IMG/VR virus record: IMGVR_UViG_3300028388_004772
Location: 32,001 to 96,000 of that record
Origin: a virus
Reading direction: 5' to 3' (one strand)
DNA length: 64,000 bases
A program made the position numbers and the translations under genes. The notes under the pieces are model-generated. The model ran no database searches and was not told the origin of the DNA. It was given only the letters and a program-made list of their open reading frames with translations. Positions 9,830-29,529 of this stretch are shown here, piece by piece; position 1 is the first letter of the stretch, and every line of letters begins with the position of its first letter.

Positions 9830-10390
9830 TTACATTTGAAGAAAAATGTCAACAGGAATAGCTAATCTTAATTGAGATGTATATTGTTTGACATAGTGAT
9901 ATACATAACCAGGAAAAATTAAAACATCTCCCGTCTGAGGTTTATGTTCTATGGAAGCAAAATCATTTATGAATGGCGGCATAAATCCTCTGTTAGCGTT
10001 GAAGCGAGGGTCTTGCATAACAATTTCTCCGCCTGAGTCTTGTTCTTCGGCCATTATATAAAATACAGAAACAAATTGAGATCCACTATGGTTATGAGTC
10101 GCCATATTGTATCCATTTGTAGTTCCTGTTAACCATGCTTTGAGCGAAAAGTCAATAGTGTCTAAATCAAAGTTATAAACGTCTTTGAAAAAGTCACTAT
10201 ACTTTTCAGTAGCTACTTCTTTCAATAATGGTGCAGTTTCTATTAGATTAGACGTCCAATCACCCTGAGGTTTAGTGACATCTTCAGTTGATAATACAGA
10301 AGTTGCAATTTGGTCACAAACTTGGTAATCGATAGATGTCTTATAGATTGGTGTAGACCAGGCTTTATTTAAGCCCGCATTCAGCTTCAT
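9830..10390 (-). CDS. 2OG-Fe(II) oxygenase-like protein (HxH type)
   Basis: HNHSGSQFVSVFY...GGEIV..DPR...GDVLIFPGYVYHYV...RLAI. Confidence 0.8.
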   Translation of the reverse strand: MKLNAGLNKAWSTPIYKTSIDYQVCDQIATSVLSTEDVTKPQGDWTSNLIETAPLLKEVATEKYSDFFKDVYNFDLDTIDFSLKAWLTGTTNGYNMATHNHSGSQFVSVFYIMAEEQDSGGEIVMQDPRFNANRGFMPPFINDFASIEHKPQTGDVLIFPGYVYHYVKQYTSQLRLAIPVDIFLQM

Positions 10391-10766
10391 AGTATTTCCT
10401 TACATCTGGTACCATTCCTTTTGTTGGTATAATTGGTACTTGATCTAAAATAGCATCATATGTTTCAGGATCTAAGTCATAAGGTACGAAGTATGGATCG
10501 TTTCCGTAAAGAAGTTCGGGATCATTCAGTAACTGATAAAAGTCTTCTCCATAATCTTCACAAATCCATGTAGCATAACAAATAGCAACAAAATATGATT
10601 TAGCAGGGTAAATCCATTCTGAGACATTTTCATAAAAATGTTTTACTGCATCCCCTACAATATCTTGTGAGTTAATTATATTAACTTTATTAAGATCATC
10701 ATTATAGTCTTTGTTTAGACGATGATATATCTCTTGTTTGATTTTCCATAACTTCATACCATTCAA
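10365..10766 (-). CDS. Hypothetical protein in the radical SAM cluster
   Basis: Overlaps both neighbours; no motif recognised; start may be Met4. Confidence 0.7.
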   Translation of the reverse strand: MNGMKLWKIKQEIYHRLNKDYNDDLNKVNIINSQDIVGDAVKHFYENVSEWIYPAKSYFVAICYATWICEDYGEDFYQLLNDPELLYGNDPYFVPYDLDPETYDAILDQVPIIPTKGMVPDVRKYYEAECGLK

Positions 10767-11655
10767 TTAGCCCCTTGTAACCATTACAGCTATTTTCCAA
10801 ATCACGAACATATCTATAATGTTCTGTTAAACATCTTCCTTTGTATCGACAGCTCTGACATATAGGACTAAGGTTGTTTTTTTCCTTTTGTGTCCATTCA
10901 ATATATTCATCAAAACTTTTTAGCTCTAAAAAATATTCCTTATCATTAATATCAAACTCAAGAACACCAAAGTTTCCATCCGGCGTGATATAAACATGGT
11001 CATCTGAAAACGCGTTATATTGACCATCAATACTTTCAATAATTTTAGATTCATTGACAAAGTTAAACTTTTTGTCAACTCCAGATTGAATCCATTTTTT
11101 AACAAATTCTTCAAAGTCTCTGTGTGTTATATTATAGGAGTTGGCTTGATTAATACTATATGGTTTGATTTCAACTGATTCAATTGACCCGCATACATTT
11201 AACTGGCTAATCATGCTGTCAACATTCATCTGCAATACAGCAGGGGATGCTAAGACTAATACAGCAATAGGTTTAGGTGAGAACATCATGTTTTGAAAAA
11301 CAAGCTCGTTTTTTTCTCGTGCATTAAAGTCATAAGATACTGAAAGATATACATCTTCATCAAAAAAATAATTATGAATCATAGACATATTCGTAATAAT
11401 ATTAATCTCACCATCATAATACTTTCTAATTACATTTTTATAATTGTAAAACACTTCTGGCTTAAGTAGACCTATCTCCCCACCATACATATCCAAATAT
11501 TTTATTTCTGGTACTTCTGATAACCTTTGATCTAATTTTTCAAAAGATAAGCGCCGGCGATCAGACAGCTGTTCTTCAGTCAAGTAACAAAAAGAACATC
11601 TAAAGTTACAATGATAACTAGGATTTAGTGATAATGTGACTGCTTTCGTCGACAT
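10702..11655 (-). CDS. Radical SAM protein with Cys-rich (SPASM/twitch-like) C-terminus
   Basis: CNFRCSFC (CX3CX2C), YGGE, C-terminal CQSCRYKGRC...C. Confidence 0.9.
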   Translation of the reverse strand: MSTKAVTLSLNPSYHCNFRCSFCYLTEEQLSDRRRLSFEKLDQRLSEVPEIKYLDMYGGEIGLLKPEVFYNYKNVIRKYYDGEINIITNMSMIHNYFFDEDVYLSVSYDFNAREKNELVFQNMMFSPKPIAVLVLASPAVLQMNVDSMISQLNVCGSIESVEIKPYSINQANSYNITHRDFEEFVKKWIQSGVDKKFNFVNESKIIESIDGQYNAFSDDHVYITPDGNFGVLEFDINDKEYFLELKSFDEYIEWTQKEKNNLSPICQSCRYKGRCLTEHYRYVRDLENSCNGYKGLIEWYEVMENQTRDISSSKQRL

Positions 11656-12667
11656 ATGGGGTCACCTCAAGGTTCAGTCCATTGGCTTCTATAATAGATG
11701 GGGCAATAGATTTCATAAGTTTACAATGGTCTTCTACCATATTATGTAGCTTCTGATCCTTAATTGTCTTCTTACAACCATTACAGATCTGAAACATAGG
11801 ACAGGAATAACATGCTTGCTTCATTGAATTAAGATACAAGTCATCTCGCAGAGGATGAAACATCTCCCCATTCATCTCTTGTTCAAAGTTAATGGCTTTC
11901 TCTCTATCATCTCCAAACGCCCCGCATGAATAGTAATCACCTTCTGGCTGTAGGGTTCGAATACCTGAATCACAATCCCTATTCTGAGGACAGACGGTCT
12001 GTTCGCCTCTGAGTCTCCTGACCATCTGTTGAGTATTATGTTCCCAATCTGTCAGACCAGCCTTCCAGATCTCAACATACTTTTCATAAATCTTTGCAAG
12101 CATATAAGGTTCTGATTGAACACCAGAGGCCATTGCATAGTTGACCTTACACACCACACCCATCTTTTTAGCGAGCTCGACAGTTTTTAACACGGTGTCT
12201 TCATTGTCCTCTGTAATCACTGCGATGAATGAAGGACGATAACCAACCTTGTCCAACATCATATCAGAAACAGCCCAGAAGTCATCTTCTGTGAATACGG
12301 TATAGTCACCTTTGAGTCTTCCGTCTCCATATTGAAAAGATGTAGCGATTCCGACACGTGGATGTCTGAATAAATCTAACCACTTGCTCGGTTTCTTATA
12401 GAATGGCCACAGATTAGTAGTCAGTGAAATAGAGGTATCATAGCCTCTTTCATCTAAAAAATCAATGATTTTCCAATAATAACTTGGATCGATCATTAGC
12501 GGATCGCCACCATTGACGATGATGGTGTTTGTATTTGGATACCGATCAAGAAATCTGTACACGTGCTCTAGATCAAGCTCAGCTGCTTTATCTTCAACGA
12601 TATCTGTCGAGGAACAGAATGTGCATTTAAAATTACACAGCTCAGTTGGTTTAATAATTAAGTCCAT
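11618..12667 (-). CDS. Radical SAM/SPASM protein
   Basis: IIKPTELCNFKCTFC, NGGDPL, CPQNRDC...YSC...CYSCPMFQICNGC...HC. Confidence 0.92.
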   Translation of the reverse strand: MDLIIKPTELCNFKCTFCSSTDIVEDKAAELDLEHVYRFLDRYPNTNTIIVNGGDPLMIDPSYYWKIIDFLDERGYDTSISLTTNLWPFYKKPSKWLDLFRHPRVGIATSFQYGDGRLKGDYTVFTEDDFWAVSDMMLDKVGYRPSFIAVITEDNEDTVLKTVELAKKMGVVCKVNYAMASGVQSEPYMLAKIYEKYVEIWKAGLTDWEHNTQQMVRRLRGEQTVCPQNRDCDSGIRTLQPEGDYYSCGAFGDDREKAINFEQEMNGEMFHPLRDDLYLNSMKQACYSCPMFQICNGCKKTIKDQKLHNMVEDHCKLMKSIAPSIIEANGLNLEVTPYVDESSHIITKS

Positions 12668-13118
12668 CTACCTTATACGCCAAATTAATAGCAACCCTTA
12701 CTTGATCTGTAGGATTTACTCTGTGTTTAACATGCGATGCTTGGCTAAGCATAACTAGTAAATGTTTTTTAGGCTGAACACACCCGACGACGCTATCATT
12801 ACACTGTATCATCAACTCTCCACCGTGGTCAACAGTAGTGAGATAATACAGAAAAAACGTGTTGTATCCCTCAACTAGATCATTATGCCATTCCATAGTC
12901 GAATGTTCTGATCCTACAAACATAGAGTATGTGTAGTCAGAATAACCTGGGAAATACGGAGCAATATAAGAGCTACCGACATAGCTACTCATATCGTTAA
13001 GATTAACATCAATCATACTAAATGAATTAGACTGCGGCATGTCGTATTGAGGTATCATTTTCTCAATACTTCTGTCTTCAAATGTCACAAATCCATGAGT
13101 AAAAAAGTTATCAATCAT
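12651..13118 (-). CDS. 2OG-Fe(II) oxygenase
   Basis: WHND...YYL...GGEL...HRV...RVAI (HxD...H...R). Confidence 0.8.
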   Translation of the reverse strand: MIDNFFTHGFVTFEDRSIEKMIPQYDMPQSNSFSMIDVNLNDMSSYVGSSYIAPYFPGYSDYTYSMFVGSEHSTMEWHNDLVEGYNTFFLYYLTTVDHGGELMIQCNDSVVGCVQPKKHLLVMLSQASHVKHRVNPTDQVRVAINLAYKVDGLNY

Positions 13119-13133
13119 ATAGTAAAGTAATTT

Positions 13134-13664
13134 TTATCTACCTAAACCAGGAATAAAAAATTCAAAAGTTAACATACGGCGTTCTCCACCTTTATGAGTT
13201 GCTTTATGTTTAAACGCGTGTGTTTGATTTACCCATACGAATTGGTTTGGTTTGTGCGAAATACTAAATTCTTCAAAACCATTAGAAAAATCGATTGTAT
13301 TTCCGTATGGGTCTCCATCGTCTAAATAAATTAAAAAATTAGTATTCAAAGGTCTTTTGACTTCTTCGTAATCGCTATGCCACAGTGAAGACTTGTAGTC
13401 AACGCCAGACCACATACCATTAGTTATAAATTCAAATTCATTCGACACTTGCTTAATGTATTTTTCTGCAACGACTTCTGTAATTTTATCTAATAGTTCT
13501 TGAGATTCTGGAGCATAGACCATTTCTTCTTTCAAGTCTCGCTCTTTGTCTTCGCTTACACAAGTTGGAAACTCGTGTCCTTCGAATAAAGATACAACAT
13601 CCATACAAAATTGATCAGAATAGTATCCTTTTACAAAAAAATCTGTTAATTCTTGCTTTTCCAT
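13134..13664 (-). CDS. 2OG-Fe(II) oxygenase
   Basis: WHSD...LIYLDD...HKATH..GERRML. Confidence 0.75.
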   Translation of the reverse strand: MEKQELTDFFVKGYYSDQFCMDVVSLFEGHEFPTCVSEDKERDLKEEMVYAPESQELLDKITEVVAEKYIKQVSNEFEFITNGMWSGVDYKSSLWHSDYEEVKRPLNTNFLIYLDDGDPYGNTIDFSNGFEEFSISHKPNQFVWVNQTHAFKHKATHKGGERRMLTFEFFIPGLGR

Positions 13665-13690
13665 TATTGATTATCCTGCTGTAATCTATG

Positions 13691-13698
13691 TGTTTATA
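13691..13698 (-). promoter_or_regulatory. Possible variant late promoter TATAAACA inside the enzyme cluster
   Basis: One mismatch to TATAAATA, in the largest intergenic gap of the cluster, followed by AGGA SD and ATG at 13664. Confidence 0.5.
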
Positions 13699-13705
13699 TA
13701 TGCTA

Positions 13706-14194
13706 TTAAGACCAACCAACACTCAATGTCTTTCTTGGTACTGATCCAAAGTATGGACATATCTTGTGTAAAAGAGACGCGTCAAAAGTCACAATTGTTC
13801 CTTTCTCAGGTTGAATTCTAATTTTGTTATTGGGAAAATTAAATAAGTTGTGATTAAAATATATGTCAAGTTCTCCACCAACCCATTTACTAGTATCATA
13901 GTCGAGAAATAATAAAGTTATCCACTCAGCCTCGTTTTTGTCGTCATGTAACTCCCACAATATACAATCTCGCGAATTTTTATCATAAGTTGGAACACTA
14001 ATAGTATGCGCAAGCACTGGATCCATTAATTTATGAGTTAACCCATATACTTCAGCTTGCAACAATTTTAAAATATAGTGATCACTGAGCTTTTGTAAAA
14101 CGTTATGCCCTTCTCCTTCTTTGAAAGGAAGACATAGTATATCGTCGAGCATCTGCTGAGGTATTGCTTTATGTGATATATTATATTTTTGCAT
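13706..14194 (-). CDS. 2OG-Fe(II) oxygenase (prolyl-hydroxylase-like)
   Basis: LHDD...WVGGELD...GTIVTFD..LLHKI...RKTLSVGW. Confidence 0.8.
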   Translation of the reverse strand: MQKYNISHKAIPQQMLDDILCLPFKEGEGHNVLQKLSDHYILKLLQAEVYGLTHKLMDPVLAHTISVPTYDKNSRDCILWELHDDKNEAEWITLLFLDYDTSKWVGGELDIYFNHNLFNFPNNKIRIQPEKGTIVTFDASLLHKICPYFGSVPRKTLSVGWS

Positions 14195-15749
14195 CGATAT
14201 AATTCTCTAGAATGTCTCGGTTTTCATTCAATATCTTTTGTCCTCTATATTGAATATTGTCACCATTAGGTAAAGTATCCATACTAAATCGATTCTGAGA
14301 TAATAGCGAAGATTTAAGAATAGTGCATAGTGCTATAAATTCTGGAAGTTGATTAAGCCCATTCCATAATGCTTTAATATATGGCGATATTTTTTTAAAA
14401 GACATATACTTGGCCATCCATGTTTTGTCTAATCCTTTACATATCTTATTCATTAGAGTCATTTCAATATAATCGTCTATTGAATACGAATAACATTCGA
14501 CTATTGTTTCATATTCAAGTTTAAGATCTTTATAGATCGTATTATCTAAATCGTCTTGGTGGCCAAAGTTAGGATCCATCTCGTTTGTAACAACGATGGT
14601 CTTGATACCATACTTGTTTTTATACTCTGGGTCTGCCGCTTCTGTAGCTGGCAATATCATATACGGATATCTATTATCGTCCCAATAATTTAGATGATGA
14701 TAAAGATCATATTCTTCGTAAAAATCGCTAATAGTTGAGCCAGGCATTCCCATAATTAACTCAAGATCTATGTAGAAATCTGATGGATCTGTCGCTTCAT
14801 TTTGTATCTCCCGAGCTCTATCTAAGACGTAATATATCTGATCTTTTTTAATATCAATTCGTTTAGCCACTTCTCTGGCTTCGTCTGATATAGACTGAAT
14901 ACTAATCGATATTTGTCTTTTAGACATACCCAATTGAACCATACGTCTTAGTATGTCCAACTTTCTCTCAATATCGAGTGTTTTTAATATTGACAATGAA
15001 TCTCCAACACTCAAATTATATTTTGCAAACAAAGATATTACTTCAAAATCTCTTTCTTTAAACATCCCAGTGTTTGCGTCAGTAAGATCTACGTACATTA
15101 ATTCAAACTGACTTAAGTACCGAAGCTCATCTTCAAATATATTTAAAGGCTTTTTAATTACCTTTATTCCTGTACCACCACCCCATTCGCAATAAGTGCA
15201 CTTAAAAGGGCATCCTCTAGTAGTCTCACCTGAAATTATGATCCGTTCAAAGATGTCAAGGTTTTCTTTAAAATAATAAAAGACTTTTCGAAAATAAGAG
15301 TCGCATCTTTTATATACATTTGTATAGCCGTAAACAAAATTAGTTTTTTTTGGAAGCGAAGGATCAATATAGCGATCAATATAGTTTGTTATAAACAACT
15401 CCCCATATGTTAATGGGTCTGCAGCTACAGTATAGTTTTTAACTATGTCAGAATTGAGATGAGGTCCACCGACTACTGTGATCACATTAGGATCAAGTTG
15501 AGATCTAATATTTTCATTAATTGAATAGTTCCACACATAGTTGCAGAACAACACAATATCGCAGTCTCTTAGATTATCAAGAATCATGTCATAAGTCATA
15601 TGATCCCATTGGTATACTGGTTCGACCCATTCAACTCTATCGTTAAATGCACCATGATCTTCATAGTATGTTTTAAACAACATCCAACTATAATTGAACT
15701 CACTTCGAGAAGCATTACTTGCTGGATTTATGTAGCCGATTTTTAGCAT
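14181..15749 (-). CDS. Cobalamin-binding-type radical SAM protein (class B methyltransferase-like)
   Basis: N-terminal FCNYVWN...VVGGPH domain, ETTRGCPFKCTYCEWG, DAN.G, ELIMGMPG.T. Confidence 0.85.
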   Translation of the reverse strand: MLKIGYINPASNASRSEFNYSWMLFKTYYEDHGAFNDRVEWVEPVYQWDHMTYDMILDNLRDCDIVLFCNYVWNYSINENIRSQLDPNVITVVGGPHLNSDIVKNYTVAADPLTYGELFITNYIDRYIDPSLPKKTNFVYGYTNVYKRCDSYFRKVFYYFKENLDIFERIIISGETTRGCPFKCTYCEWGGGTGIKVIKKPLNIFEDELRYLSQFELMYVDLTDANTGMFKERDFEVISLFAKYNLSVGDSLSILKTLDIERKLDILRRMVQLGMSKRQISISIQSISDEAREVAKRIDIKKDQIYYVLDRAREIQNEATDPSDFYIDLELIMGMPGSTISDFYEEYDLYHHLNYWDDNRYPYMILPATEAADPEYKNKYGIKTIVVTNEMDPNFGHQDDLDNTIYKDLKLEYETIVECYSYSIDDYIEMTLMNKICKGLDKTWMAKYMSFKKISPYIKALWNGLNQLPEFIALCTILKSSLLSQNRFSMDTLPNGDNIQYRGQKILNENRDILENYIDAKI

Positions 15750-16262: not shown

Positions 16263-17279
16263 TTATGCTCGAGCTATAATGCCACTTGCTGCATCAATGT
16301 ATCTGAATGTTTCTTTATAGACGCACTCTTCCATTTCTTGTCTATATCTATAATCGTGTTGCATAAAGCAGCCTAGTGTGCACCGATTAAAATATTCACA
16401 CGTAAGACATCCATACTTTTCCATGAAACTTTCTTCGATGGGTGAGTTATCCATTGGTTGTATGTCATGATCATACATCACTTTGTCTTCAGGCGATTGT
16501 ACAAGGTTACCACACATACACATTGTATTATCTTCTAATATAAGCTTACTGCTTCTGCAACTAATGTAGTTCGTTTGCCTTTCAATCCACTCAGCAATAG
16601 GGCTAAGTTTAGGGTAGTTGTTTATAAAGTATTTGAATACAGCATATAGCTCATGATCAGTTGGTGCTTGGTGGTGTGCTGTTTTGTCTGGCATGTAGTA
16701 GTCAGCGTACAGATAGAATCCATCTCTATAGAATTGATCTAAGTTTTTATCTCCTTTAAGAAATGCTTTGATGTTCTGTTTAGTCAACAAAAGACCAATA
16801 CCATCCAAATGCTCTTGAAAGTAGTATAAGTTTTTCTTGAACAATGCTAAGTCTTTTTTATTGAATCTACCAGAGGGATCGTAGCTAGTAAAAAGAGTAG
16901 AAGGAATTGCTTTTAATAGAGTTTCTATTAGGTCAATTTTAGTTGTGACGAGATTTGTTACCCAATTGACAGACGTATTAATGTTATATTTCTCACCAAG
17001 GTCAAAAATCCCTTGAGCAAGTTTTATATAATCTTGGTTGAGCTTTTCATTATAGATTGAGTCAGCGAATATTTCTCCACCCATAATATTAAAAACTACA
17101 GATGATTTTTTCTCTTCTAGAAGAAACTGCTCAATTGGCTCAAGCTTTTCAAGAACCGTATCGATCCCTGTCAGATTACCATGATCTTGCCAACAAAACG
17201 AGCAAGAGAGATTACAAAACTCAAAAAGATGAATGGTGTACTCTTGTTGGTGATCTCTCTTTGCATCTAATAAAATCAT
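16263..17279 (-). CDS. Radical SAM/SPASM protein
   Basis: CNLSCSFC, MGGE, C-terminal C...CMC...CLTCEYFNRCTLGC...EC. Confidence 0.9.
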   Translation of the reverse strand: MILLDAKRDHQQEYTIHLFEFCNLSCSFCWQDHGNLTGIDTVLEKLEPIEQFLLEEKKSSVVFNIMGGEIFADSIYNEKLNQDYIKLAQGIFDLGEKYNINTSVNWVTNLVTTKIDLIETLLKAIPSTLFTSYDPSGRFNKKDLALFKKNLYYFQEHLDGIGLLLTKQNIKAFLKGDKNLDQFYRDGFYLYADYYMPDKTAHHQAPTDHELYAVFKYFINNYPKLSPIAEWIERQTNYISCRSSKLILEDNTMCMCGNLVQSPEDKVMYDHDIQPMDNSPIEESFMEKYGCLTCEYFNRCTLGCFMQHDYRYRQEMEECVYKETFRYIDAASGIIARA

Positions 17280-18337
17280 CTCAAACTATAATTTTTCAGC
17301 TTCTCAGGATTTGTTCTATATAAAGTTCTGCAGTACGAAATAAAGATTGTATTGATCTTACCCATTCTACCTATATCGGTAGAACTAACATGAGTAGCAT
17401 CGGTCTTACATTCTAAAAACTCTTTGATCACCTTGTTCAGTTGAGTGTCGGTAAGCTCACCTTTCATGATTGAATTCAAATATGGAATCTCATCGTCAAG
17501 TGTTTTAAACATCGCGATTGAAGATTGTGCTGATCCAGTGTTTTCTAATTTTGAACAAACATCGATTGCTGCGTTTACTATTTTCTTCGCTTGAGTGTAG
17601 GTAAGCCCTTCTAGTGTAAACTTGCCGGCCGAGCCCGCTATGTAAGGACTCTTATTAACGTCCTCAAAGCTTTTATACGTGGATGATTCAAATATTTCTT
17701 TAAAGAAATTTAAAGACGAATAATTAGAAACATCTAATAATTCGCCTGTGTTGCCAAGAATCTTCTGTAGCTCATCATCTAGAATGTTTAACTCCATGTG
17801 TTGCATCAAACACATCAATCCGTCATCAATTTCTCTACGCATGAACGTAGCAAATGTTTTCTTAAGATTAGATTTGTATCGTGTGTCACCATTTACTTGA
17901 CTAGCAACCATAAATTCTAGCGAAGGAGTATATTGGTAACTTGACAGGTCCAGCTCCGGAGCTTCATCCCAATAATTAATAAGAAAATCTTTCATGCCTT
18001 CACATGATTCATTATACAATTCTCGGTGCTTTACGATACACTCAGCATATATCACCCAATCGTCAGCACTCATATTCGTAGCTGATTTATACCACGTGGC
18101 AGCGATCTTCGCAAATGATTCTATATCAGCATGAATAGCTCTCTTATCATTAGCCAACAGCATATGTAAAAATAAATTTTCTGCATCTTCAAAATCAAAT
18201 GATGGAGCAATGAATTGCTCCTCAGGTTTCAAATCTTCTTTAATAGTATCTGACCAATCAAAATATGCACCGCCAATCTTAGTGTTGTACAACACATCAG
18301 GTGTGTCTAAATAAATTCTATTAAACAGGTGTAGCAT
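17276..18337 (-). CDS. Hypothetical helical protein in the radical SAM cluster (start refined to MLHLFN)
   Basis: ATG at 18337 overlaps the upstream TGA (TGATG coupling). Confidence 0.7.
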   Translation of the reverse strand: MLHLFNRIYLDTPDVLYNTKIGGAYFDWSDTIKEDLKPEEQFIAPSFDFEDAENLFLHMLLANDKRAIHADIESFAKIAATWYKSATNMSADDWVIYAECIVKHRELYNESCEGMKDFLINYWDEAPELDLSSYQYTPSLEFMVASQVNGDTRYKSNLKKTFATFMRREIDDGLMCLMQHMELNILDDELQKILGNTGELLDVSNYSSLNFFKEIFESSTYKSFEDVNKSPYIAGSAGKFTLEGLTYTQAKKIVNAAIDVCSKLENTGSAQSSIAMFKTLDDEIPYLNSIMKGELTDTQLNKVIKEFLECKTDATHVSSTDIGRMGKINTIFISYCRTLYRTNPEKLKNYSLR

Positions 18338-18969
18338 CAGTTTGCCTCTTGTACTTCTTGAATATTGCCGGATGCAATTGCCCATGTAAGGAGAAACATT
18401 GGGTTATTCTCATTAGCCCAGTAAGAAAATAAATTATTTCCTTTAAACATGTAATCGTTAAAGTAACTTGAAAAATATGTAAGATTATTTGGATTTACTT
18501 TTTTGAACAACAAATAAAAATCTTTATTCTTAACCAAACTTATGAAGTTTATTCCTGTTAAATCTTTTGTATCATCTTCTGGAAATTGTTTAACCCAATT
18601 TTGCATTTCTTCAGAATTAACTGAATATATGTTAAAAAGAGTTAATGAATCGATTTTTCTTTCCCAAGATAACAATTCTTCTTTATTATCTACATCTTCA
18701 CCCATCTTTAATTTGCCTAACATAGCTATGACGACAGTTTCAAGAGACGGAATGTTTACTAACACTTGAGTTTTTAAATAATCCCCAACAAACTCTTGAT
18801 CAAAGTTAATTACATCACATGGAAGATCTAAATTACCTAAGTACGTTAATAATCTATCACCCCGTAACTCAGAATTTTGATAATCAATAATAAAGTATGT
18901 TTCTTTATCTTCAAAATACTTTTTCAAATCATCAATTGCAATTGGTGCAGTTGTATCAATAACATTCAT
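18337..18969 (-). CDS. Hypothetical protein directly downstream of the putative substrate
   Basis: TAATG coupling to the 199-aa gene; no motif recognised. Confidence 0.7.
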   Translation of the reverse strand: MNVIDTTAPIAIDDLKKYFEDKETYFIIDYQNSELRGDRLLTYLGNLDLPCDVINFDQEFVGDYLKTQVLVNIPSLETVVIAMLGKLKMGEDVDNKEELLSWERKIDSLTLFNIYSVNSEEMQNWVKQFPEDDTKDLTGINFISLVKNKDFYLLFKKVNPNNLTYFSSYFNDYMFKGNNLFSYWANENNPMFLLTWAIASGNIQEVQEAN

Positions 18970-19568
18970 TATCTTCTACCTCTTGAAGAGTGACACGAGG
19001 AGTGGCAGCTAGCGTGACAAACATTTCGTGTTAAAGTAATAGTGTTATCTCTTTCGCTGTTATATGCAGCTCTAAAATTACTAAAAAGAGTTTCCAAATT
19101 ATCATCGTCAATTATCTCGCCTGCGGAAACGCTAGCATTATCTGGATCGGTGATAGTTTGTAAATAATCATCTGATAAGTATGCAACTTGGGTTTGGTCA
19201 AACACAATACCAAACGTACCAATAGGTCCTTTGTCCGTATTCGATGTGCCAGATACTCCAGTAACGTTTAATCTAGCTCTAACTTTACGTATGGATGTAT
19301 ACCGATTTGTTTCTGTAACAAGTGCATTGTAAATTGCATTAGCATCTATCAATTCACTTCCGTCAGCTTTAATATCATCCCCATCAATGCTAATTGATTT
19401 TCCGTCTGAATTGCCACCCATAAATGCATCAGTAAGCACAGTAACACCTGAATACGTAGGATTTGTATTTGTAGCCCATACAATCCCACCATTTGCATGA
19501 TCCACTACAAATTCTTTGAATCGATTCACTATATTCTGGGCTGTGACTGGATTAGTTAATGTAGCCAT
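18969..19568 (-). CDS. Putative modified virion protein / RiPP-like precursor with C-terminal (Cys-His-Xaa-Ser)3-RGRR
   Basis: Ends VCHASCHSSCHSSRGRR; all three Cys of the protein lie in this tail; body is T/N/D/G-rich like virion proteins; sits among radical SAM genes. Confidence 0.75.
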   Translation of the reverse strand: MATLTNPVTAQNIVNRFKEFVVDHANGGIVWATNTNPTYSGVTVLTDAFMGGNSDGKSISIDGDDIKADGSELIDANAIYNALVTETNRYTSIRKVRARLNVTGVSGTSNTDKGPIGTFGIVFDQTQVAYLSDDYLQTITDPDNASVSAGEIIDDDNLETLFSNFRAAYNSERDNTITLTRNVCHASCHSSCHSSRGRR

Positions 19569-20571
19569 TTATTTCTTCATCCATCTTTATCATTAATAAC
19601 TTTGGAGCCGGACATACATCATCTTCCCATTCAAGCTGATGGCAGTCTCCTTTACAGTATTTATACATGTTACAGGTGTAACACCTTGGATCTCTTGTTA
19701 GCTCTTGGGCAATGATTTCACACCGTTTTGGCTTATTAAGCACATTTAACCCATCGTCAATATGTCCATACACTTCTTCAGGAGCAGCGTTTGGGCAACC
19801 TGATATAGACCCATCGGCATTAATTGTAAATAATTTCTGTTCACAATCACGACAAAAAGTACCAGCTGAGTTAAAATTGTCTTCGAACTTTGTATATATG
19901 TTTTCTAAAAAGTCATTTCTAAACCAAGCTCTTGCATCATAGCGTTTAGTTTGTTCATACATTTTTAAAAACCAGCGCTGGAGCTCCAGATTAGTAGGAA
20001 AAATTATTGGATTTTTTCTTGCTGATCCGTTTAAGGTTAATCTTTCGAGTGCTAATTCCTGCACTCCTAGTTTTTTTACAAATTTAAGAAGATCTATTGG
20101 TTCCATATCTATAACTGATCTACTAAGAGAAACAAACAATTTAATTGTATAACCGCGGTCAAGCAGCAATTTGATATTGTGTTCCCACAGATCGATTTGT
20201 TTTTTATTCTCAAATCGAATGTCTGAATCCCACGACGTTCCAATACGTTTATTTAACGCATTATCCATAAAGTCTAATTTATCATCAGTAAGCTTAAAAA
20301 CAAGATTTGTTGTAGCTCCGTAGCTAAATCCATTAGCTTTTGTGCGATGATAAAAATCCCACATGCTTTCTATAGAGGCGAGAAATGGTTCACCTCCATG
20401 AAACTCAAAATGGCCTGTCCTTCCACTTGTTAACAAATTGCACCAATCTGCAGTTTTTTTAGAATCAAAAAATATCTTTCTACCATTCTTTCCAGAAGTA
20501 AAGCAGTGACTACAATTAAGATTACACGTCTCAGTAGTTTTAATGTAAAACATCAGGTCATTTTTAATCAT
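19552..20571 (-). CDS. Radical SAM/SPASM protein
   Basis: YIKTTETCNLNCSHC, FHGGEP, CRDC...INADGSISGCP...CYTCNMYKYCKGDC...CP. Confidence 0.92.
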   Translation of the reverse strand: MIKNDLMFYIKTTETCNLNCSHCFTSGKNGRKIFFDSKKTADWCNLLTSGRTGHFEFHGGEPFLASIESMWDFYHRTKANGFSYGATTNLVFKLTDDKLDFMDNALNKRIGTSWDSDIRFENKKQIDLWEHNIKLLLDRGYTIKLFVSLSRSVIDMEPIDLLKFVKKLGVQELALERLTLNGSARKNPIIFPTNLELQRWFLKMYEQTKRYDARAWFRNDFLENIYTKFEDNFNSAGTFCRDCEQKLFTINADGSISGCPNAAPEEVYGHIDDGLNVLNKPKRCEIIAQELTRDPRCYTCNMYKYCKGDCHQLEWEDDVCPAPKLLMIKMDEEINGYIN

Positions 20572-20948
20572 TCGTCACCGATCGACAACATTACAGAATC
20601 ATACTTATTGATTGCTTCATGAGGTGTATTGGCTGGTATAAGTAGAGTGTCTGTAATCTCTAACTCTTTACCATTTATTATCATTGTCTTCGTCCCCGAT
20701 AGCACTTTTAATTGTACATCATATGGGTCAATATGACAACGAAAACTTACAGCATTTTTTGGGGAAATGTATAGGTGGACAGTCTTGGGACAGTACTCTG
20801 TATAGTACGACTCTAATCCCTCAACCTTTATTGTCTTTTTATTTTCAGCAATATAATAACCAACCTGATCTAGTGTTATCTCATGATCAAGTTGGTTCTC
20901 ATCAATTATGTAAGCCTTAGTACCATACTTTAAAATTTCAGATAACAT
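20568..20948 (-). CDS. Cupin / minimal JmjC-like protein
   Basis: HLYISP....SF..HIDPYDV....LSGTK...LLIPANTPHEA. Confidence 0.75.
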   Translation of the reverse strand: MLSEILKYGTKAYIIDENQLDHEITLDQVGYYIAENKKTIKVEGLESYYTEYCPKTVHLYISPKNAVSFRCHIDPYDVQLKVLSGTKTMIINGKELEITDTLLIPANTPHEAINKYDSVMLSIGDE

Positions 20949-21829
20949 TCAACTATTTTTACTTCCTCAAAATTATTGCTTTGTAAAGCAATGCCAACCA
21001 TTGGACCAGTACCTGTTACTGATGCGAGACCAGGAGAACAAGCGTATACCACATCTCCTTTCGCTACAGTCCCCTTGATTCTGACAGGTACCCTTCCGAC
21101 AAGGGCTACTGATTGACCCTCAGAAGAAGAATTCATTATATATGCGGGATTTGTTGAAATGACCCCAGTAACCTCTTTACCAGAAGTCCATGGCTCCATT
21201 TCATCATCTTTGTTGGTACCTATTGTCATTACAGTCCCTGGGGGCTGAATGGTCTCCGTTGTATATTTCTCGGCTACGTCAGCATATTGTGCTTGAGTAG
21301 CAGTAGCGGTAATTATATTGGCACTAAAATTGCTCGAATCATCACGAAATACAATTGTATTTGCAGTATTGTCCGCAGTAGCATTTGATGTAACAGTAAA
21401 TGTTCCTCCGTTCGAGCTAACGCTACCAGAAATACCATTACCTGATGTTGCACCTACAGCTACGTAGTTGCCAATTGTAAACTCACCTGTAATTGAATCA
21501 TAATTTAGCCCATTACCCGAGGAAAATAAGCTTCTAGTACTTTGCGCATCTACAGAGCCTGTAAGAGTAAATATACCAGAACCGCTATTGTAAGATAAAG
21601 AAACGCCAGTAGCTTGGTCATCCACGCTAATCGATTGTCTTGATATAGTAGTAAGTTCACCTGAATCATCAAAGGCGCTGACTATATTTCTTACTGTGTT
21701 AATAGCATCAACAACATTACTATCACCTGTCACTAAATTATCGACATTTCCAACATCATTAGAAATAGTATTTGTCTTAGTGACAAATACCGACATAGTG
21801 TCTGACAGGTTAACATTAGTTATAGCCAT
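20930..21829 (-). CDS. Short fibre protein with C-terminal intramolecular-chaperone-like domain
   Basis: N-terminal V..SDT...F..KTN anchor; YADVAEKY...GTV...GVISTNPAYIMN...VALVGRVPV..GD. Confidence 0.7.
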   Translation of the reverse strand: MAITNVNLSDTMSVFVTKTNTISNDVGNVDNLVTGDSNVVDAINTVRNIVSAFDDSGELTTISRQSISVDDQATGVSLSYNSGSGIFTLTGSVDAQSTRSLFSSGNGLNYDSITGEFTIGNYVAVGATSGNGISGSVSSNGGTFTVTSNATADNTANTIVFRDDSSNFSANIITATATQAQYADVAEKYTTETIQPPGTVMTIGTNKDDEMEPWTSGKEVTGVISTNPAYIMNSSSEGQSVALVGRVPVRIKGTVAKGDVVYACSPGLASVTGTGPMVGIALQSNNFEEVKIVECYLKF

Positions 21830-21835
21830 TTTAGA

Positions 21836-22069
21836 TTACCTATTTTTCTCGACTAATTGTACCAATAAATCTTTGATTTCTTTTATCTCGTCTTTAAGAT
21901 CTTCGACCTCATTGGCGAGCGACAGCTGCTGTTCTTTTTGCTGCTTCATTAATTGTTTTCTCTTTCGGGCCGCTTCAATTTCAGCCTTGTTTGTATTGAT
22001 GACAACATTTGTTTCTGTGTCTCTTACAAAACCCGAAAGATTTTCCACTTCCTTATACTGCAAGTGCAA
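21836..22069 (-). CDS. Small coiled-coil protein downstream of the large baseplate protein
   Basis: VRD..T..VINT motif followed by a heptad-rich C-terminus. Confidence 0.65.
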   Translation of the reverse strand: MHLQYKEVENLSGFVRDTETNVVINTNKAEIEAARKRKQLMKQQKEQQLSLANEVEDLKDEIKEIKDLLVQLVEKNR

Positions 22070-25000
22070 TGGCCCTCAAGTCCTTCAATACTGGGATGTA
22101 TGAAGTACTTGTGGATTCCATTACAATCTTAATCTGGAAGGATGTGAATGCTGGCAATTGGCCACCTTCACCACCAATCAAGTACTCATACTCTCTGAAC
22201 ACCAATACCTCATCAGAAGGCACAGTTGTAGTAGCGCTCGCGAGCTGCCAACTAGTATCCCTAATTGTCTCTGCGTCAGTAGATGTTCTGTAGTAAACTT
22301 TAAAGTTACCAGCAGATGGTCTGTACGCTGCAAAGAACAACTTAATACCAACAGCCTCTTCTGCCAACGTTGCAACAGTTGTAATGTGCTTCGAAGCTGA
22401 TGAGCCATTGTATGGATCGGTTTCATCTACAATCGAAATTGGTACATTGAAACCAGATGTGTTGGACGAATCTTGCTTATCAATAGAGTTCTCAATAAAT
22501 GTCATCGAAGCTCTTTGAAGATCAAGAATTGGAGATACTTTAGTATCGCTTGTTGACAAAGTCAACTTAATCGTAGCAGCATCTGCAACCTGGTTCTTCG
22601 AGTTAGGAATTAGCTTAGGAGCCTGTGTTCCATTCACCTCATTAATAATGATTGGGGTGAAAGAAGATGCCACACTATAAGCTGAGTTGGTTGCCTCGTT
22701 ACGATCAGTACCCCAACTTGCTCCACTTGTCAACTTAATACTACCAGAAATACCAGTATTATTAGGTGTTAGGGTTTGTACCGTTGTGAAGTACTCATTG
22801 AACATGAACTGCTGAGTAGACTTAACATTTGTTCCACCCGTGCGAATTGATCCTGTTGCTGCTGAATCAGCTGCAAAAGTATATCCAGTCCAGTCAGTAT
22901 TAATGATTGTTCTATCACCAAGCATCGACGCACCTTTAATTCCAGCATATGTCGATCCTGAATCTAAGCCATACAAAGCCACTGTATCATTCTTAACAAA
23001 TCCATGGCCTTCATGGAACACACGAATAGTCGTAGAACCTGAATCAGTTAGAATTGGATCACTACCGAGCAAATACAATGGTGGTTGTGCATTGGTTAGG
23101 TAAGCATCACCTGAGCTGCTAAATTCAGCACGGTTAATTCTAAACATCAAATCTCTATTCTGATCTGGTGTCCAGGTTGTACCGTTTTGTGATCTATACA
23201 ATGAACCAAGAGTTGGTTGCTTCGATACTCTTGCATCCGTAGATCCAAGAACAAAATCATATGTCTTGGCAACATAGACTGTGTAGTCTGTAGTCTCTGC
23301 TGCAACCACTATTGCATACTCTTGACCAGGGGCCAGGTAAATTGGCTCGTCAAATGTAAATGTTGTTGGAGCTGCTCTTACACTTTCAAGGTCTTCTAAA
23401 TCAGCAGGAATTGATACTTCAGTTGGTGATAGATATTTGACAGCACCTGGTAACGGATATGCTAAAGGTGTGCCGTTCTCTACTCCACGAATTTGAACCT
23501 GTACAGGTTGACCTCCAGTTGGAGCCTTTGTTCTAAAGAATACATCAACACTTGTTACAAAGATACCAGATGGGTTCTCTGTTTGTGATACAAAGAATGA
23601 TTGGGCAACTGGGTCCCAGAAACAGAAAATCGATTTCTTCTTAACAACAATTGTCTGAACATCAATCTCTCGTGTTACTTTAAGTGTTCTTTCTCTTACT
23701 TCCAATACACCAGTTGATGTAAAGATGTCTTGACACAATGATGTTGCGTTGTCATCATTATCAGCTGTGATATCAAGAAGTTTGAGAATCTTTGATCCAG
23801 TTCTGAATTTGATTGCATTAGTAGAAGGAATGAAGAATGATCCTTCAATTTTACCCTCAGCATCTGAGATCAAACGACTCTTACCCTCAGGATGCTCAGT
23901 TGCTCTTTGATAGATATTACCATAATCTTCAGTAGTAGAACTGTATCGTACAAATGATTCTTCTCGAACCCAATCAGCAACACTAACACCATTAAAGAAG
24001 GCAAAATGTTCTGTGTTCGGTTTTAATCCTTGAGCCTTAAAGTATACTTTCTTAGATCTCATGTAAGGAATAAGGAATGTTTCTATTACTCTGTTGCCAA
24101 CCTGCTCAATAATAATATCATCTCTGACTACAGCTTCGTTTGATGCAATTGATACGCTTGGTTGATCATCAATCAATGCATTGACGGCAGCTGCTGTGGC
24201 AGAGCTTGCAGCTGCAAGACTAGCTGCAGTGAGATAATTACCTGCCATTAGCTGACCGAGTGCAGTTGTGGAAAGAGAGAATCCAGTACTTGCAGCTCCA
24301 ACACCAGTAGCAGCTCCTCCTGCAGTTCCTCCACCAAGTAGTCCAAAACCACCCGTTTTTGCTGCTATTACCAAGGCAACTGCTATACCAAACCAGCCAC
24401 CAAAGGTTCTTTGAACAACCGTTCGAGTACCCACATTTCTCTTCTTGACACCACCATCAATTAGAACGTCCGGTAAGAATGCTTGCTCAATCCAGTCGTC
24501 CGATGCTGGGGAAAGCTGAAGAGTACCAGTGTTGATAATAACTTCAAATGGGTTAACATTAATTGCTTCGTTACACAAATCTTGATATGAAAACTGAGTT
24601 TCTGTGTACGGAAGAGTAACAAGATCACCTGTCTTATTAGTTGTCTGACTGACGCCATCTGAATCGAAGAACAGCCGCACATTACCATAGTAAATCGCTG
24701 GCGTAATAACTTTGGCCGATGGATCCAAAGCAGCTCTATAGCTAACATTGTCCACATCAGAAAAAACAAAATCCTTGAAGTTATCAGCAAAGAATCCTGA
24801 CTTAGTTCTTTGCAATCCGTTTGAATCTAGTACAGATAATGTCGATGTATTCAATTCAAGCAAACTCAGAGAGGTAACATCTGCTAACTTGTTTATTCTT
24901 TTTTCAAGTGAACCGATGTCTTTCATCGTATATCTTCTATTATTAATGAAAGATAGGTTTACATCAGAATCACTCAAAGTGTATGGAGGAAGAGTTATAT

Positions 25001-27302
25001 CATAAAGGGGCAATGCACCAGATGGTGTTTCTGGAAGAGAAGCTTCCGTGGATGAAATGCCCGTTGTCACTCTAACTTCACCTACACCCTCATTACCCTC
25101 GGCATCCAAAGACGATACGATTAGCTGATCTCTTCTTGGAAGATAATACTCAGCATCAAGTGTTACAATATCAGTAGATTGAGGAATATTATTAACATTA
25201 GCTTCAGGGTAAGCACCTGAAGAGTTTTGAATTGATCTAAAGTCTAGTACATCTCTTAAGCTAACATCACCAAAGCTCGGTATACTGGTATAATCTACCG
25301 CTCCGTTGTAAGAGTTGATAGCAAATAAATCCCCAGCACCGTGAGTAAAGTAATCGAACTGAACAAGAATGTCTCCAGTTGGAATAGAGGTTCCAGCCTT
25401 TTCAACAAGTCTTCCTAGTCCATAGTAGTTCGCTCTTTGACCATTATCCGCAATAAAGTTATTGGATAGATCGGCTCCATTGGAATCAGCTTGAGTGATA
25501 CTTGTTACTCTGTAAATATCAGCAACACCAAGATCGATATATCTAAGACCATTTCCATCTGAATCAGCTTCTGAAGGCCAAGCCTTTGTTAAACTATTTC
25601 CTGTTGATAAAGATTTTGTACGAATAACAGGTGTATCAACTTGGATATAAGCAATCAATTCGTAATTCGAAGAGACATCGAGACCCGAAATGTCGACTTG
25701 AGAGCCAACAGGAGATCCAGTAAGTGTGAATGTTGCATTCGTGTCACTTACCGCTTCACCTTCTTTAGTGATAATCCAATCCCCCGTGTTAGTGAATGTA
25801 TCACCACCACCAGCTGAAAGTGTATAGGAACTTCCTGTAGTCGGGAAGGCATAACGCTTTCTTGTTGTTAATACAATATCAGATACACCATCAATTACAG
25901 GGCGTGATCTTGGAAGCGGGAACAACATTGTGTTGATAGAGCTTTGCTTGAGATTAGTAATCCCAGCTTCAACTACTGTATTAACATAATCTGTTGTACC
26001 ATTACCAAAACTTCTGACGTTACGGAATGATTGACCCGAATTCATTTGAATATCAAACAGATAGAATCTTAGGTTACCACCATCCTCATCAATTCCTCTG
26101 ACTCTAGCAGTACCAATACTGTCCCCAGTCCATCCTTTAGCACTCATCAAGTCAACTTGCTCAAGAGTGTTAATATTTGGAAGACCCGCACAACTATCCG
26201 GATTTCCTAATACATAATTACCATATTGAACAACGATTGGTTCGTTTTCTACAGTTTCTGTATCTCTTGCCTTTGGAACGGTAATTTTTGTAGGAGCAAT
26301 ATCTAAACGATAACCATCTACATATGCAATACCACTTGAAACATCCAATGTTAAGTTAGAGTCGTTTAGATCGTCAAACTTCGCTCGGAACGCTTTAACA
26401 ACATAATCACCCGACTCTTCTTTTGTTCTTCGAGCAAGAGCCTTATTAATCTGATTATAGTTATCATCTCCACCAATCTCTTTTGTGATCAATCCATTTG
26501 TTACTTTGGCCACAAGTACGAAGTTCTGGTCAGAGTCAACTTCACTTCGCGTTGTAAGAATTAAACGAATACGGTATCTGTCTGCACCTGGGGCTGCAAT
26601 ATTTGGTTCCGATCCTTGATTGTCATACAAACGATTGTCATCATTCGCCGTGACAACTTCTTCAACAATCCTAAAACCAATATCATCGGTGGGTGTGGAA
26701 CTGTATTTGTCTATGAAAGTTGATTGAGGAGCAGCATAGATAAAATGACCTTGTGCAAAGAATTCACCTTCCCCAACAGATGCAAGTGTTCCTCTACCTG
26801 TAGCGCTGGCATTAGCTGCTTTAAGTGATGCCAATCCATCAGACGTGAAGATAGCTCCATTCTGTACTCGAATTGGATCAGCGGTTGCTGTGCCGGCAGT
26901 TGTGTCTGTATATCTAACATATAAAGTTGCTGGATCTGTAGCAGTCGCAGCTTCTACACGAATAATCTTAAACTTAATCGCAGCATTTGGAGCACTTACT
27001 GTATACTCTGCCCCAACAAGAGCTGAAGTATCTGCTGGCAGAGGAAATGTAACCGTATCAAGTTTAATAAATTCAAACCGGTTGTTAACCGTTACTCCAC
27101 CTGGTGTGACTGTAGCACCTTCAGTAAAGATGTTTCTACCAAACCGCGCAATTTCTTCCTGAATAATCGTTTGCATCTGAGTAAGTTCTCTTGCCTGAAG
27201 AGCTCTACCAGAATTAAACAGAATACGATGGAAGTTATCACTGTCGCGATAATCATCCTTGTATGTTGAAGAAAATGTGGTATCTTTAACCGTTGTTGCC
27301 AT
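22053..27302 (-). CDS. Large baseplate/virion structural protein (VrlC/DUF4815-like), 1749 aa
   Basis: Y.DD......FHRILF..GRALQARELTQMQT, APGADR, RYTMKDIG.LEKRI, KSGFFADNF, DPVAQSF, DLRAIALA; directly after gp8. Confidence 0.85.
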   Translation of the reverse strand: MATTVKDTTFSSTYKDDYRDSDNFHRILFNSGRALQARELTQMQTIIQEEIARFGRNIFTEGATVTPGGVTVNNRFEFIKLDTVTFPLPADTSALVGAEYTVSAPNAAIKFKIIRVEAATATDPATLYVRYTDTTAGTATADPIRVQNGAIFTSDGLASLKAANASATGRGTLASVGEGEFFAQGHFIYAAPQSTFIDKYSSTPTDDIGFRIVEEVVTANDDNRLYDNQGSEPNIAAPGADRYRIRLILTTRSEVDSDQNFVLVAKVTNGLITKEIGGDDNYNQINKALARRTKEESGDYVVKAFRAKFDDLNDSNLTLDVSSGIAYVDGYRLDIAPTKITVPKARDTETVENEPIVVQYGNYVLGNPDSCAGLPNINTLEQVDLMSAKGWTGDSIGTARVRGIDEDGGNLRFYLFDIQMNSGQSFRNVRSFGNGTTDYVNTVVEAGITNLKQSSINTMLFPLPRSRPVIDGVSDIVLTTRKRYAFPTTGSSYTLSAGGGDTFTNTGDWIITKEGEAVSDTNATFTLTGSPVGSQVDISGLDVSSNYELIAYIQVDTPVIRTKSLSTGNSLTKAWPSEADSDGNGLRYIDLGVADIYRVTSITQADSNGADLSNNFIADNGQRANYYGLGRLVEKAGTSIPTGDILVQFDYFTHGAGDLFAINSYNGAVDYTSIPSFGDVSLRDVLDFRSIQNSSGAYPEANVNNIPQSTDIVTLDAEYYLPRRDQLIVSSLDAEGNEGVGEVRVTTGISSTEASLPETPSGALPLYDITLPPYTLSDSDVNLSFINNRRYTMKDIGSLEKRINKLADVTSLSLLELNTSTLSVLDSNGLQRTKSGFFADNFKDFVFSDVDNVSYRAALDPSAKVITPAIYYGNVRLFFDSDGVSQTTNKTGDLVTLPYTETQFSYQDLCNEAINVNPFEVIINTGTLQLSPASDDWIEQAFLPDVLIDGGVKKRNVGTRTVVQRTFGGWFGIAVALVIAAKTGGFGLLGGGTAGGAATGVGAASTGFSLSTTALGQLMAGNYLTAASLAAASSATAAAVNALIDDQPSVSIASNEAVVRDDIIIEQVGNRVIETFLIPYMRSKKVYFKAQGLKPNTEHFAFFNGVSVADWVREESFVRYSSTTEDYGNIYQRATEHPEGKSRLISDAEGKIEGSFFIPSTNAIKFRTGSKILKLLDITADNDDNATSLCQDIFTSTGVLEVRERTLKVTREIDVQTIVVKKKSIFCFWDPVAQSFFVSQTENPSGIFVTSVDVFFRTKAPTGGQPVQVQIRGVENGTPLAYPLPGAVKYLSPTEVSIPADLEDLESVRAAPTTFTFDEPIYLAPGQEYAIVVAAETTDYTVYVAKTYDFVLGSTDARVSKQPTLGSLYRSQNGTTWTPDQNRDLMFRINRAEFSSSGDAYLTNAQPPLYLLGSDPILTDSGSTTIRVFHEGHGFVKNDTVALYGLDSGSTYAGIKGASMLGDRTIINTDWTGYTFAADSAATGSIRTGGTNVKSTQQFMFNEYFTTVQTLTPNNTGISGSIKLTSGASWGTDRNEATNSAYSVASSFTPIIINEVNGTQAPKLIPNSKNQVADAATIKLTLSTSDTKVSPILDLQRASMTFIENSIDKQDSSNTSGFNVPISIVDETDPYNGSSASKHITTVATLAEEAVGIKLFFAAYRPSAGNFKVYYRTSTDAETIRDTSWQLASATTTVPSDEVLVFREYEYLIGGEGGQLPAFTSFQIKIVMESTSTSYIPVLKDLRAIALAV

Positions 27303-28671: not shown

Positions 28672-28687
28672 TTGTATTTCCTATTGA

Positions 28688-29494: not shown

Positions 29495-29521
29495 TCTTTT
29501 ACCCGTAAAAGACTTTAGTTT

Positions 29522-29529
29522 TATTTATA
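29522..29529 (-). promoter_or_regulatory. T4-type late promoter TATAAATA
   Basis: Exact match upstream of 29494; nearest exact late promoter I found upstream of the radical SAM cluster. Confidence 0.8.

Follow-up and report, generated by a model that had tools for sequence, protein, structure and literature searches.

What a marine T4-like phage does with four distinct radical S-adenosylmethionine (rSAM) enzymes, encoded around a small protein that ends in a Cys- and His-rich repeat, is the question raised by the IMG/VR record IMGVR_UViG_3300028388_004772, of which we analysed positions 32,001 to 96,000 (64,000 nucleotides (nt), hereafter the window; all features given with window coordinates lie on the minus strand). 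The genes form a cassette of ~11 kb, ~8% of the 141-kb genome, comprising four rSAM/SPASM enzymes, a JmjC-like cupin, 2-oxoglutarate (2OG) oxygenases, sometimes a B12-type rSAM enzyme and two or three unknown partners. We propose that the repeat-bearing protein is probably a virion-associated protein whose exposed C-terminal tail is the substrate of the cassette. This is considered the best explanation since the tail is invariant, its gene and the enzyme genes are linked in both directions, the gene has a late promoter of its own, and a homologue is found in virions without the enzymes.

The tail-bearing protein (199 amino acids (aa); 18969..19568) is the product of an open reading frame (ORF) belonging to phrog_35144, which has no assigned function. 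It begins with MATLTNPVTAQN (MATLTNP...) and ends with NVCHASCHSSCHSSRGRR, directly followed by the stop codon. The tail itself, CHAS-CHSS-CHSS-RGRR (18972..19019), forms the exact C-terminus and is the proposed modification site. The three Cys of the protein all lie in the tail, and only one of the four His lies outside; the repeats are written in unequal codons (TGT CAC GCT AGC / TGC CAC TCC TCG / TGT CAC TCT TCA). The start of the gene overlaps the end of the gene for enzyme A (rSAM-A, 19552..20571) by 17 nt, while its stop codon shares 1 nt with the start of the next gene (TAATG). The initial annotation had described the ORF, the tail, the Cys and His counts, the differing codons and the rSAM overlap, and was found to be correct throughout when checked against the sequence. 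The protein matched no NCBIfam or Pfam model and shows no signal-like N-terminal segment, the conserved MATLTNP... start lying within the fold.

A word-indexed search returned 273 homologues, none of them bearing a functional name, and an exhaustive profile search extended the family to 640 clusters at 50% identity, 278 of which had E <=1e-10. Among 33 diverse members with a mean identity of 52%, the invariant positions include C184, H185, C188, H189, C192, H193, R196, R198 and R199. When 73 distinct versions of the tail DNA are compared, C1, H2, S4, C5, H6, C9, H10, R13, R15 and R16 are without any change; these versions use both TGT and TGC and both CAT and CAC, and encode Ser4 by six codons from both Ser families. 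Since synonymous codons are mixed and the residues are fixed, selection acts on the peptide and not on the DNA. The exact C-terminal pattern CH..CH..CH..R.RR is present in 136 of 148 representatives at <=50% identity, the remainder being near variants or truncated calls. In these representatives the third residue after Cys is far more commonly Ser than Asn, and the protein always ends directly after RR. Because three C-H-x-S units in a row have a chance expectation of ~1e-8 over six frames of 64 kb (estimated by hand) and the motif so regularly occupies the exact C-terminus, a chance origin is excluded on sequence grounds. Stand-alone tail proteins range from 137 to 296 aa, and the same tail is carried by unrelated bodies in phages RSF1 and Atu_ph07. 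The expectation that the tail is constant while the body varies thus held in the DNA versions, in the alignment and in the representatives alike. In a group of metagenomic proteins (P0124-P0131, 451-461 aa), an N-terminal Gly_rich_2 domain (PF21722) is fused to the entire tail-protein module.

The association with the enzymes is equally regular. Genes for rSAM enzymes are present in 88 of 88 loci with a tail gene, and the gene order is constant in 80 IMG/VR loci wherever the contig reaches: (fibre with chaperone domain), cupin, rSAM-A, tail protein, unk210, (unk369), rSAM-B, (B12-rSAM, oxygenases), rSAM-C, (oxygenases), rSAM-D, unk133, oxygenase. The partner unk210 follows the tail gene directly in 76 of these 80 loci, and the other four stop within ~100 nt of the tail gene. 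In a reciprocal test, rSAM-C served as the anchor and its 338 IMG/VR relatives provided 79 new loci; the tail gene lies 2.8-8.2 kb upstream in 64 of them, and in 13 the upstream sequence is too short to tell. Two loci (L155, L163) had appeared to contain rSAM-C without a tail gene and were rejected as such: one contig stops inside unk210, and the tail gene of the other lies ~1 kb past the fetched locus. The linkage between the tail gene and the rSAM genes is complete in both directions, given enough sequence. Homologues without radical SAM neighbours, which would have spoken against the pairing proposed in the initial annotation, are absent from the 88 tail loci, and the reverse test agrees. 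Moreover, no non-enzyme other than the tail protein both has a repeat motif and stays with the enzymes in unrelated phage lineages. The cassette occurs in T4-like marine phages, phiKZ-like phages and Atu_ph07-like giants. One locus (L087, 9195-10030) encodes two tandem short tail proteins (137 and 140 aa) with a body unlike that of the other members; directly before them is a 2859-aa fibre whose C-terminus is of the chaperone type, and after them a divergent 400-aa CxxxCxxC protein whose gene overlaps the tail gene.

A search of 185,579 species genomes gave only five matches, each on a contig of a metagenome-assembled genome (MAG). On one of these, a 77.9-kb Bdellovibrionaceae MAG contig (L086), FabH and an AMP-binding/acyl-CoA-ligase-type gene flank the cassette, which has an extra rSAM-A-like gene. 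Judged by these neighbours, this copy may be cellular, and predatory bacteria may have the system as well.

In cultured phage records, no match was obtained by tblastn of the 199-aa protein or by megablast of 10 kb, and the homologues in these phages were reached only via the neighbouring unk210 and rSAM genes. Searches with unk210 and rSAM-A found 15 cultured-phage records each. The carriers infect Ralstonia (RSF1, RSL2, FLC4-x, RsoM3USA), Burkholderia (FLC6, FLC8, SURPRISE13), Agrobacterium (Atu_ph07), Sinorhizobium (Phosso) and Pseudomonas (pPa_SNUABM_DT01). The same cassette core is present in RSF1, RSL2 and Atu_ph07; orthologues of the four rSAM enzymes occur in the jumbo phages, across which rSAM-A is 42-48% identical. 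In RSF1 the tail protein is ORF071 (186 aa), ending with VCHSSCHSSCHGSRGRR, and its body has no BLAST similarity to the 199-aa protein apart from the tail; in Atu_ph07 it is gp170 (296 aa), ending with FCHSSCHASCHNSRSRR, with a body that is similar in parts only. The RSL2 counterpart is ORF068. The RSF1 and RSL2 cassettes contain dihydrofolate reductase (DHFR) genes between rSAM-B and rSAM-C (L081, 12602-13718; L088, 12027-12563), and that of RSF1 also contains an HNH endonuclease gene. The DHFR genes prompted us to consider DNA modification as the main role of the rSAM genes; we rejected this idea, as DHFR does not occur elsewhere and the partner that stays constant is the tail protein.

Atu_ph07 also provides the evidence for a place in the virion. 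In its published virion proteome, Gp170 is listed at 31.89 kDa with 8 unique peptides and 35% coverage, and was detected in gel fragments 1-9 with its peak in fragment 1; gp165, gp168, gp169, gp171 and gp172, which are the enzymes and the unk210 homologue, are absent from the list (PMC6102473 Table S5). The mass that we computed for the Atu_ph07 tail homologue, 31.89 kDa, equals that of the listed Gp170. The description of the 199-aa product as virion-like in the initial annotation is therefore supported by the gp170 proteomics, though it could not be judged from sequence or fold, as the AlphaFold2 (AF2) model has no match in the PDB. The anomalous migration of gp170 hints at a stable high-mass species. 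The peak in fragment 1 was rejected as proof of covalent cross-linking, since the loading buffer contained no reductant and other proteins of ~32-36 kDa peak there too.

Expression points the same way. A T4-type late promoter consensus, TATAAATA (19658..19665), lies inside the 3' end of rSAM-A, 97 nt upstream of the tail gene. Eight of the nine TATAAATA sites in the window are found just upstream of genes, and the ninth is inside rSAM-A. Among 101 unique tail genes, 80 are preceded by the consensus at a distance of <=200 nt, where 0.03 would be expected in a window of that size; the gene for the tail protein thus resembles structural genes in being served by a late promoter of its own. This arrangement suggests that the substrate may be transcribed above the level of the upstream enzymes. 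Like the Gly_rich_2 fusions, the late promoter agrees with a structural role.

In the AF2 model, the 199-aa protein has a compact alpha+beta body (pLDDT 85). Its last strand runs as far as Cys184, after which the tail is poorly ordered. For this body, Foldseek against the PDB gave no match with E <0.98, the best Z in a VIA-wide search was 4.1, the ESM Atlas returned TM <=0.34, and only members of the family itself were found in BFVD. Neither a fibre-like nor another known fold could thus be given to the body, which in the model is a compact alpha+beta domain and not fibre-like. The model of the neighbouring unk210 (pLDDT 91) likewise had no PDB match (best Z 4.8), and the fold and atlas searches with it were empty.

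What might the enzymes do to such a tail? By their profile matches, the cassette enzymes are members of the Radical SAM / SPASM superfamily. PF04055 is matched at or above its cut-off by rSAM-A, rSAM-C, rSAM-D and the B12-type enzyme, while rSAM-B scores 25 bits against 29.5, and the TIGR04085 SPASM model (cut-off 27) scores 31.7 for rSAM-A and 25.9 for rSAM-C. In rSAM-A the CxxxCxxC motif (C16/C20/C23) and eight further Cys are invariant. The initial annotation had pointed to the HxsB/HxsC, triceptide and sacti/ranthipeptide systems. No cassette enzyme reaches the cut-off of a model for these or for anSME; all matches to the named maturase models (DynA, DarE, PapB, anSME, HxsB/C, AmcB, YhhB and GrrM) were far below it. 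The best PDB profile matches were 8vpo, anSME and ChlB (9gm3, E 9e-5), all weak, and a single-sequence PDB search with rSAM-A found nothing.

The closest precedent for the tail system is HXS, a bacterial antiphage system in which the effector HxsA is matured by the rSAM enzymes HxsB/HxsC with HxsD (Li et al., Nat Commun 2026, PMC13128918). The two resemble each other in having a protein-sized substrate of ~200 aa with His-x-Ser units rich in basic residues, and in pairing more than one radical SAM enzyme with a small partner; HxsA cannot do without the His and Ser of its modified unit (PMC13128918). However, HxsA is a bacterial defence effector with a signal peptide, a peptidoglycan-binding domain and HxS repeats of period 3 without Cys, whereas the phage tail has period 4, invariant Cys, a free C-terminus, four SPASM enzymes and a phage virion carrier. 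Neither the enzymes, which score 27.4 bits against 370 for HxsB (TIGR03978) and 28.5 against 267.9 for HxsC (TIGR03977), nor the substrate, with its period-4, Cys-containing repeats, would place it within HXS.

Triceptides offer a second comparison, in which tandem aromatic-x-x triads stand beside SPASM enzymes. Here the triad would be His-x-Ser/Asn, which occurs three times and is near-invariant, with the residue at position i+3 being of the beta-carbon donor type. Scores against the 3-CyFE maturases YhhB (18.7 bits against 445), GrrM/OscB (15.4 against 310) and AmcB (21-25 against 425) are low, and the putative phage substrate differs in being a folded protein rather than a short peptide and in having an invariant Cys before every His. 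The anSME family (TIGR03942, PDB 4K36-4K39) is among the closest solved structures for rSAM-A and rSAM-C, with 8vpo ranking above it for rSAM-A, and its target, as proposed here for the tail, is a Cys of a folded protein. Sulfatases carry the motif C-x-P/A-x-R. The last tail unit, C-H-[G/S/N]-S-R, has the same spacing from Cys to Arg, with position +2 rarely Ala and never Pro. The phage system differs in its three Cys, its four enzymes and its lack of a sulfatase domain, and the anSME model gave 36.6 and 44.8 bits against 349. Finally, evenly spaced Cys beside SPASM enzymes recall the sacti/ranthipeptides (PapB, CteB/SCIFF type); the PapB model NF047865 gave 37.9 bits against 340, and no acceptor pattern or RRE domain was detected. 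By analogy with these systems, we infer that the modification would be a radical cross-linking or oxidation. His-to-Ser/Asn C-C cyclophanes are a candidate because His-x-Ser/Asn fits the triceptide triad, Cys thioethers because the spaced Cys fit thioether donors, and conversion of Cys to formylglycine because C-H-x-S-R resembles the sulfatase motif.

We therefore envisage the following. The 199-aa product would be made late and be virion-associated, its 16-residue flexible tail, (C-H-x-S)x3-R-x-R-R-COOH, projecting from the folded alpha+beta body. The cassette would covalently modify this tail before or during assembly, and the modified product would join the host-recognition apparatus encoded nearby (VrlC-like giant protein, fibres, baseplate). 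The tail would thus be the enzyme substrate, with a product acting at the host surface. That the body doubles as a leader, that the tip binds metal or that it mimics a receptor ligand, as put forward in the initial annotation, is speculation.

Several points weigh against this proposal. All cassette enzymes stay below the cut-offs of the characterised maturase families, the nearest PDB sequence matches are weak, and no RRE/PqqD-like domain was found by Pfam in any cassette protein. The virion evidence is from a single proteome and concerns a distant homologue, while RSF1 and RSL2 annotate theirs as hypothetical and not as a virion structural protein. Prediction of a complex between rSAM-A and the tail protein, a pairing raised in the initial annotation, gave weak support: the median ipSAE was 0.46 and the best control 0.00, but one of the three runs gave 0.03. 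Of 80 solved complexes, 58 reach the ipSAE mark, as do 2 of 110 mismatches; at <=0.60, only 7 of the 80 solved complexes are found together with both mismatches. Contact agreement between the runs was at least 8% and the pLDDT of the partner at least 74. Lastly, Cys and His are classical metal ligands, and an unmodified metal site would be conserved too.

This last point leads to a different explanation, namely that the tail is an unmodified site for Zn, Fe, Cu or an Fe-S cluster which stabilises an oligomer or joint of the virion, the rSAM enzymes acting on fibres, partner proteins or something else. Three Cys and three His within 12 residues would suit such a site, and the peak of the 31.9-kDa gp170 in the top gel fragment, in a buffer without reductant, would allow for complexes held together by metal or disulfides. 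We consider a metal site unlikely, since it leaves unexplained the conserved Ser/Asn at i+3, the invariant R-x-R-R and the fixed distance to the free C-terminus, and since no other non-enzyme with a repeat motif follows the enzymes from one unrelated phage lineage to another. A further alternative is that the tail protein is an accessory of the enzymes (for example an Fe-S cluster carrier, electron donor or scaffold) and not their substrate. Enzymes of the rSAM type do require cluster delivery and a reductant, and Fe-S assembly genes have been reported alongside many rSAM genes in marine T4-like phages (PMC5332604). An accessory would nevertheless not be expected in virions from which the enzymes are missing, nor to have a very variable body when the enzymes are conserved, and the tail is predicted to be disordered rather than a cluster-binding fold; we regard this role as very improbable.

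The layout of a C-terminal core behind an upstream leader is also the usual one for a precursor of a ribosomally synthesised and post-translationally modified peptide (RiPP), and SPASM enzymes are of the peptide-modifying type. The body would then be a long leader, and the modified 16-mer would be cleaved to a free peptide serving as a signal, toxin, metallophore or cofactor. Yet family scans of the 80 loci found no conserved protease or exporter in the cassette, and the body is a well-folded, conserved domain that has a homologue in virions, Gly-rich structural fusions and a late promoter of the structural type, so that release of a free peptide seems quite improbable. All three of these alternatives, the metal site, the accessory and the free peptide, are less likely than the tail being the substrate of the cassette on a virion-associated protein.

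To go further, the cassette might fit the free C-terminus of a host-contact protein with a macrocyclic "warhead", made rigid by cross-links between Cys/His residues, that would bind or attack a component of the prey cell envelope, the module being common to large phages of many lineages and to Bdellovibrio-like predatory bacteria. This extension is, in our estimation, a long shot; if true, it would give virus particles their first example of a receptor-binding element cross-linked by enzymes in the manner of a RiPP.

Literature searches on the tail motif and on phage-encoded rSAM RiPPs found no description of the system, and studies of pelagimyophages, of marine viral genomes and of jumbo phages do no more than list the rSAM genes. 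The peptide chemistry of radical SAM enzymes has been described for bacterial natural products and, recently, for one bacterial defence effector, but is not known as a maturation step of a virus particle. With 640 tail-protein clusters, the cassette is widespread, extending over hundreds of phages of several lineages, and in marine myoviruses it lies in the host-recognition region. If the tail is modified, phages tailor a structural protein with RiPP-type enzymes, and this would represent a new class of virion post-translational modification as well as a new SPASM family with a defined, invariant 16-residue substrate. Since several cultured phages carry the cassette, this is directly testable.

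The remaining genes are given here in the order of transcription. Upstream of the cassette in most loci is a fibre protein (299 aa; 20930..21829) with a C-terminal intramolecular-chaperone domain (PF11962 Peptidase_G2, tail-fibre PHROGs). The usual first cassette gene encodes the JmjC-like cupin (126 aa; 20568..20948; PF08007 JmjC_2, E 1e-6), which most loci possess, as do RSF1 and Atu_ph07. It is followed by rSAM-A (339 aa), always immediately upstream of the tail gene. Behind the tail gene are the conserved partner unk210 (210 aa; 18337..18969), translationally coupled to it through the TAATG overlap, and a second partner, the 369-aa ORF unk369 (17276..18385), which is seen in part of the loci owing to its divergence. 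The true start of unk369 is probably the internal Met of MLHLFNRIYL. Similar N-termini recur in RSF1 ORF072 and in L168, and the unk369 family is therefore wider than phmmer suggested. The core enzyme rSAM-B (338 aa; 16263..17279) has the motif CNLSCSFC, a weak PF04055 match and membership of phrog_1802, with orthologues in RSF1 and Atu_ph07. Then come optional accessories: the B12-type radical SAM enzyme (522 aa; 14181..15749), found in part of the loci and KedN5-like by NF033712 (E 5e-26, below cut-off), and three small oxygenase-like genes (12651..14194) that differ in number and order among loci. Of their products, the 162-aa and 155-aa proteins match PF13640 (2OG-Fe(II)), and the middle one, of 176 aa, has no Pfam match.

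Beyond rSAM-C are the core enzyme rSAM-D (317 aa; 10702..11655; CNFRCSFC, PF04055), with orthologues in RSF1 and Atu_ph07, and the small core protein unk133 (133 aa; 10365..10766), which follows rSAM-D in most loci and in RSF1 and had no family match in Pfam and NCBIfam scans. A 2OG-Fe(II) oxygenase (186 aa; 9830..10390; PF13759, E 2e-11), common in the loci, is the usual last gene. On the other side, just upstream of the cassette, the window encodes a 1749-aa VrlC-like giant protein, a gp8-like protein and a gp6-like baseplate wedge (22053-27302 and 27313-32315). These surroundings match the "host recognition cluster" described for pelagimyophages, and, judged by gp6, the nearest cultured relative is Phage C48C1 (47%), which is without the cassette. 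The most conserved cassette enzyme is rSAM-C itself (349 aa; 11618..12667; PF04055 E 1e-9), with 64% mean column identity and E ~1e-145 to RSF1 and Atu_ph07. In many loci (L090-L092, L096-L098 and others) the rSAM-C match spans ~1280 nt compared with the usual ~1040, and these ~240 extra bases point to a putative insertion, which may be an extra domain, an intein or an intron-like element.

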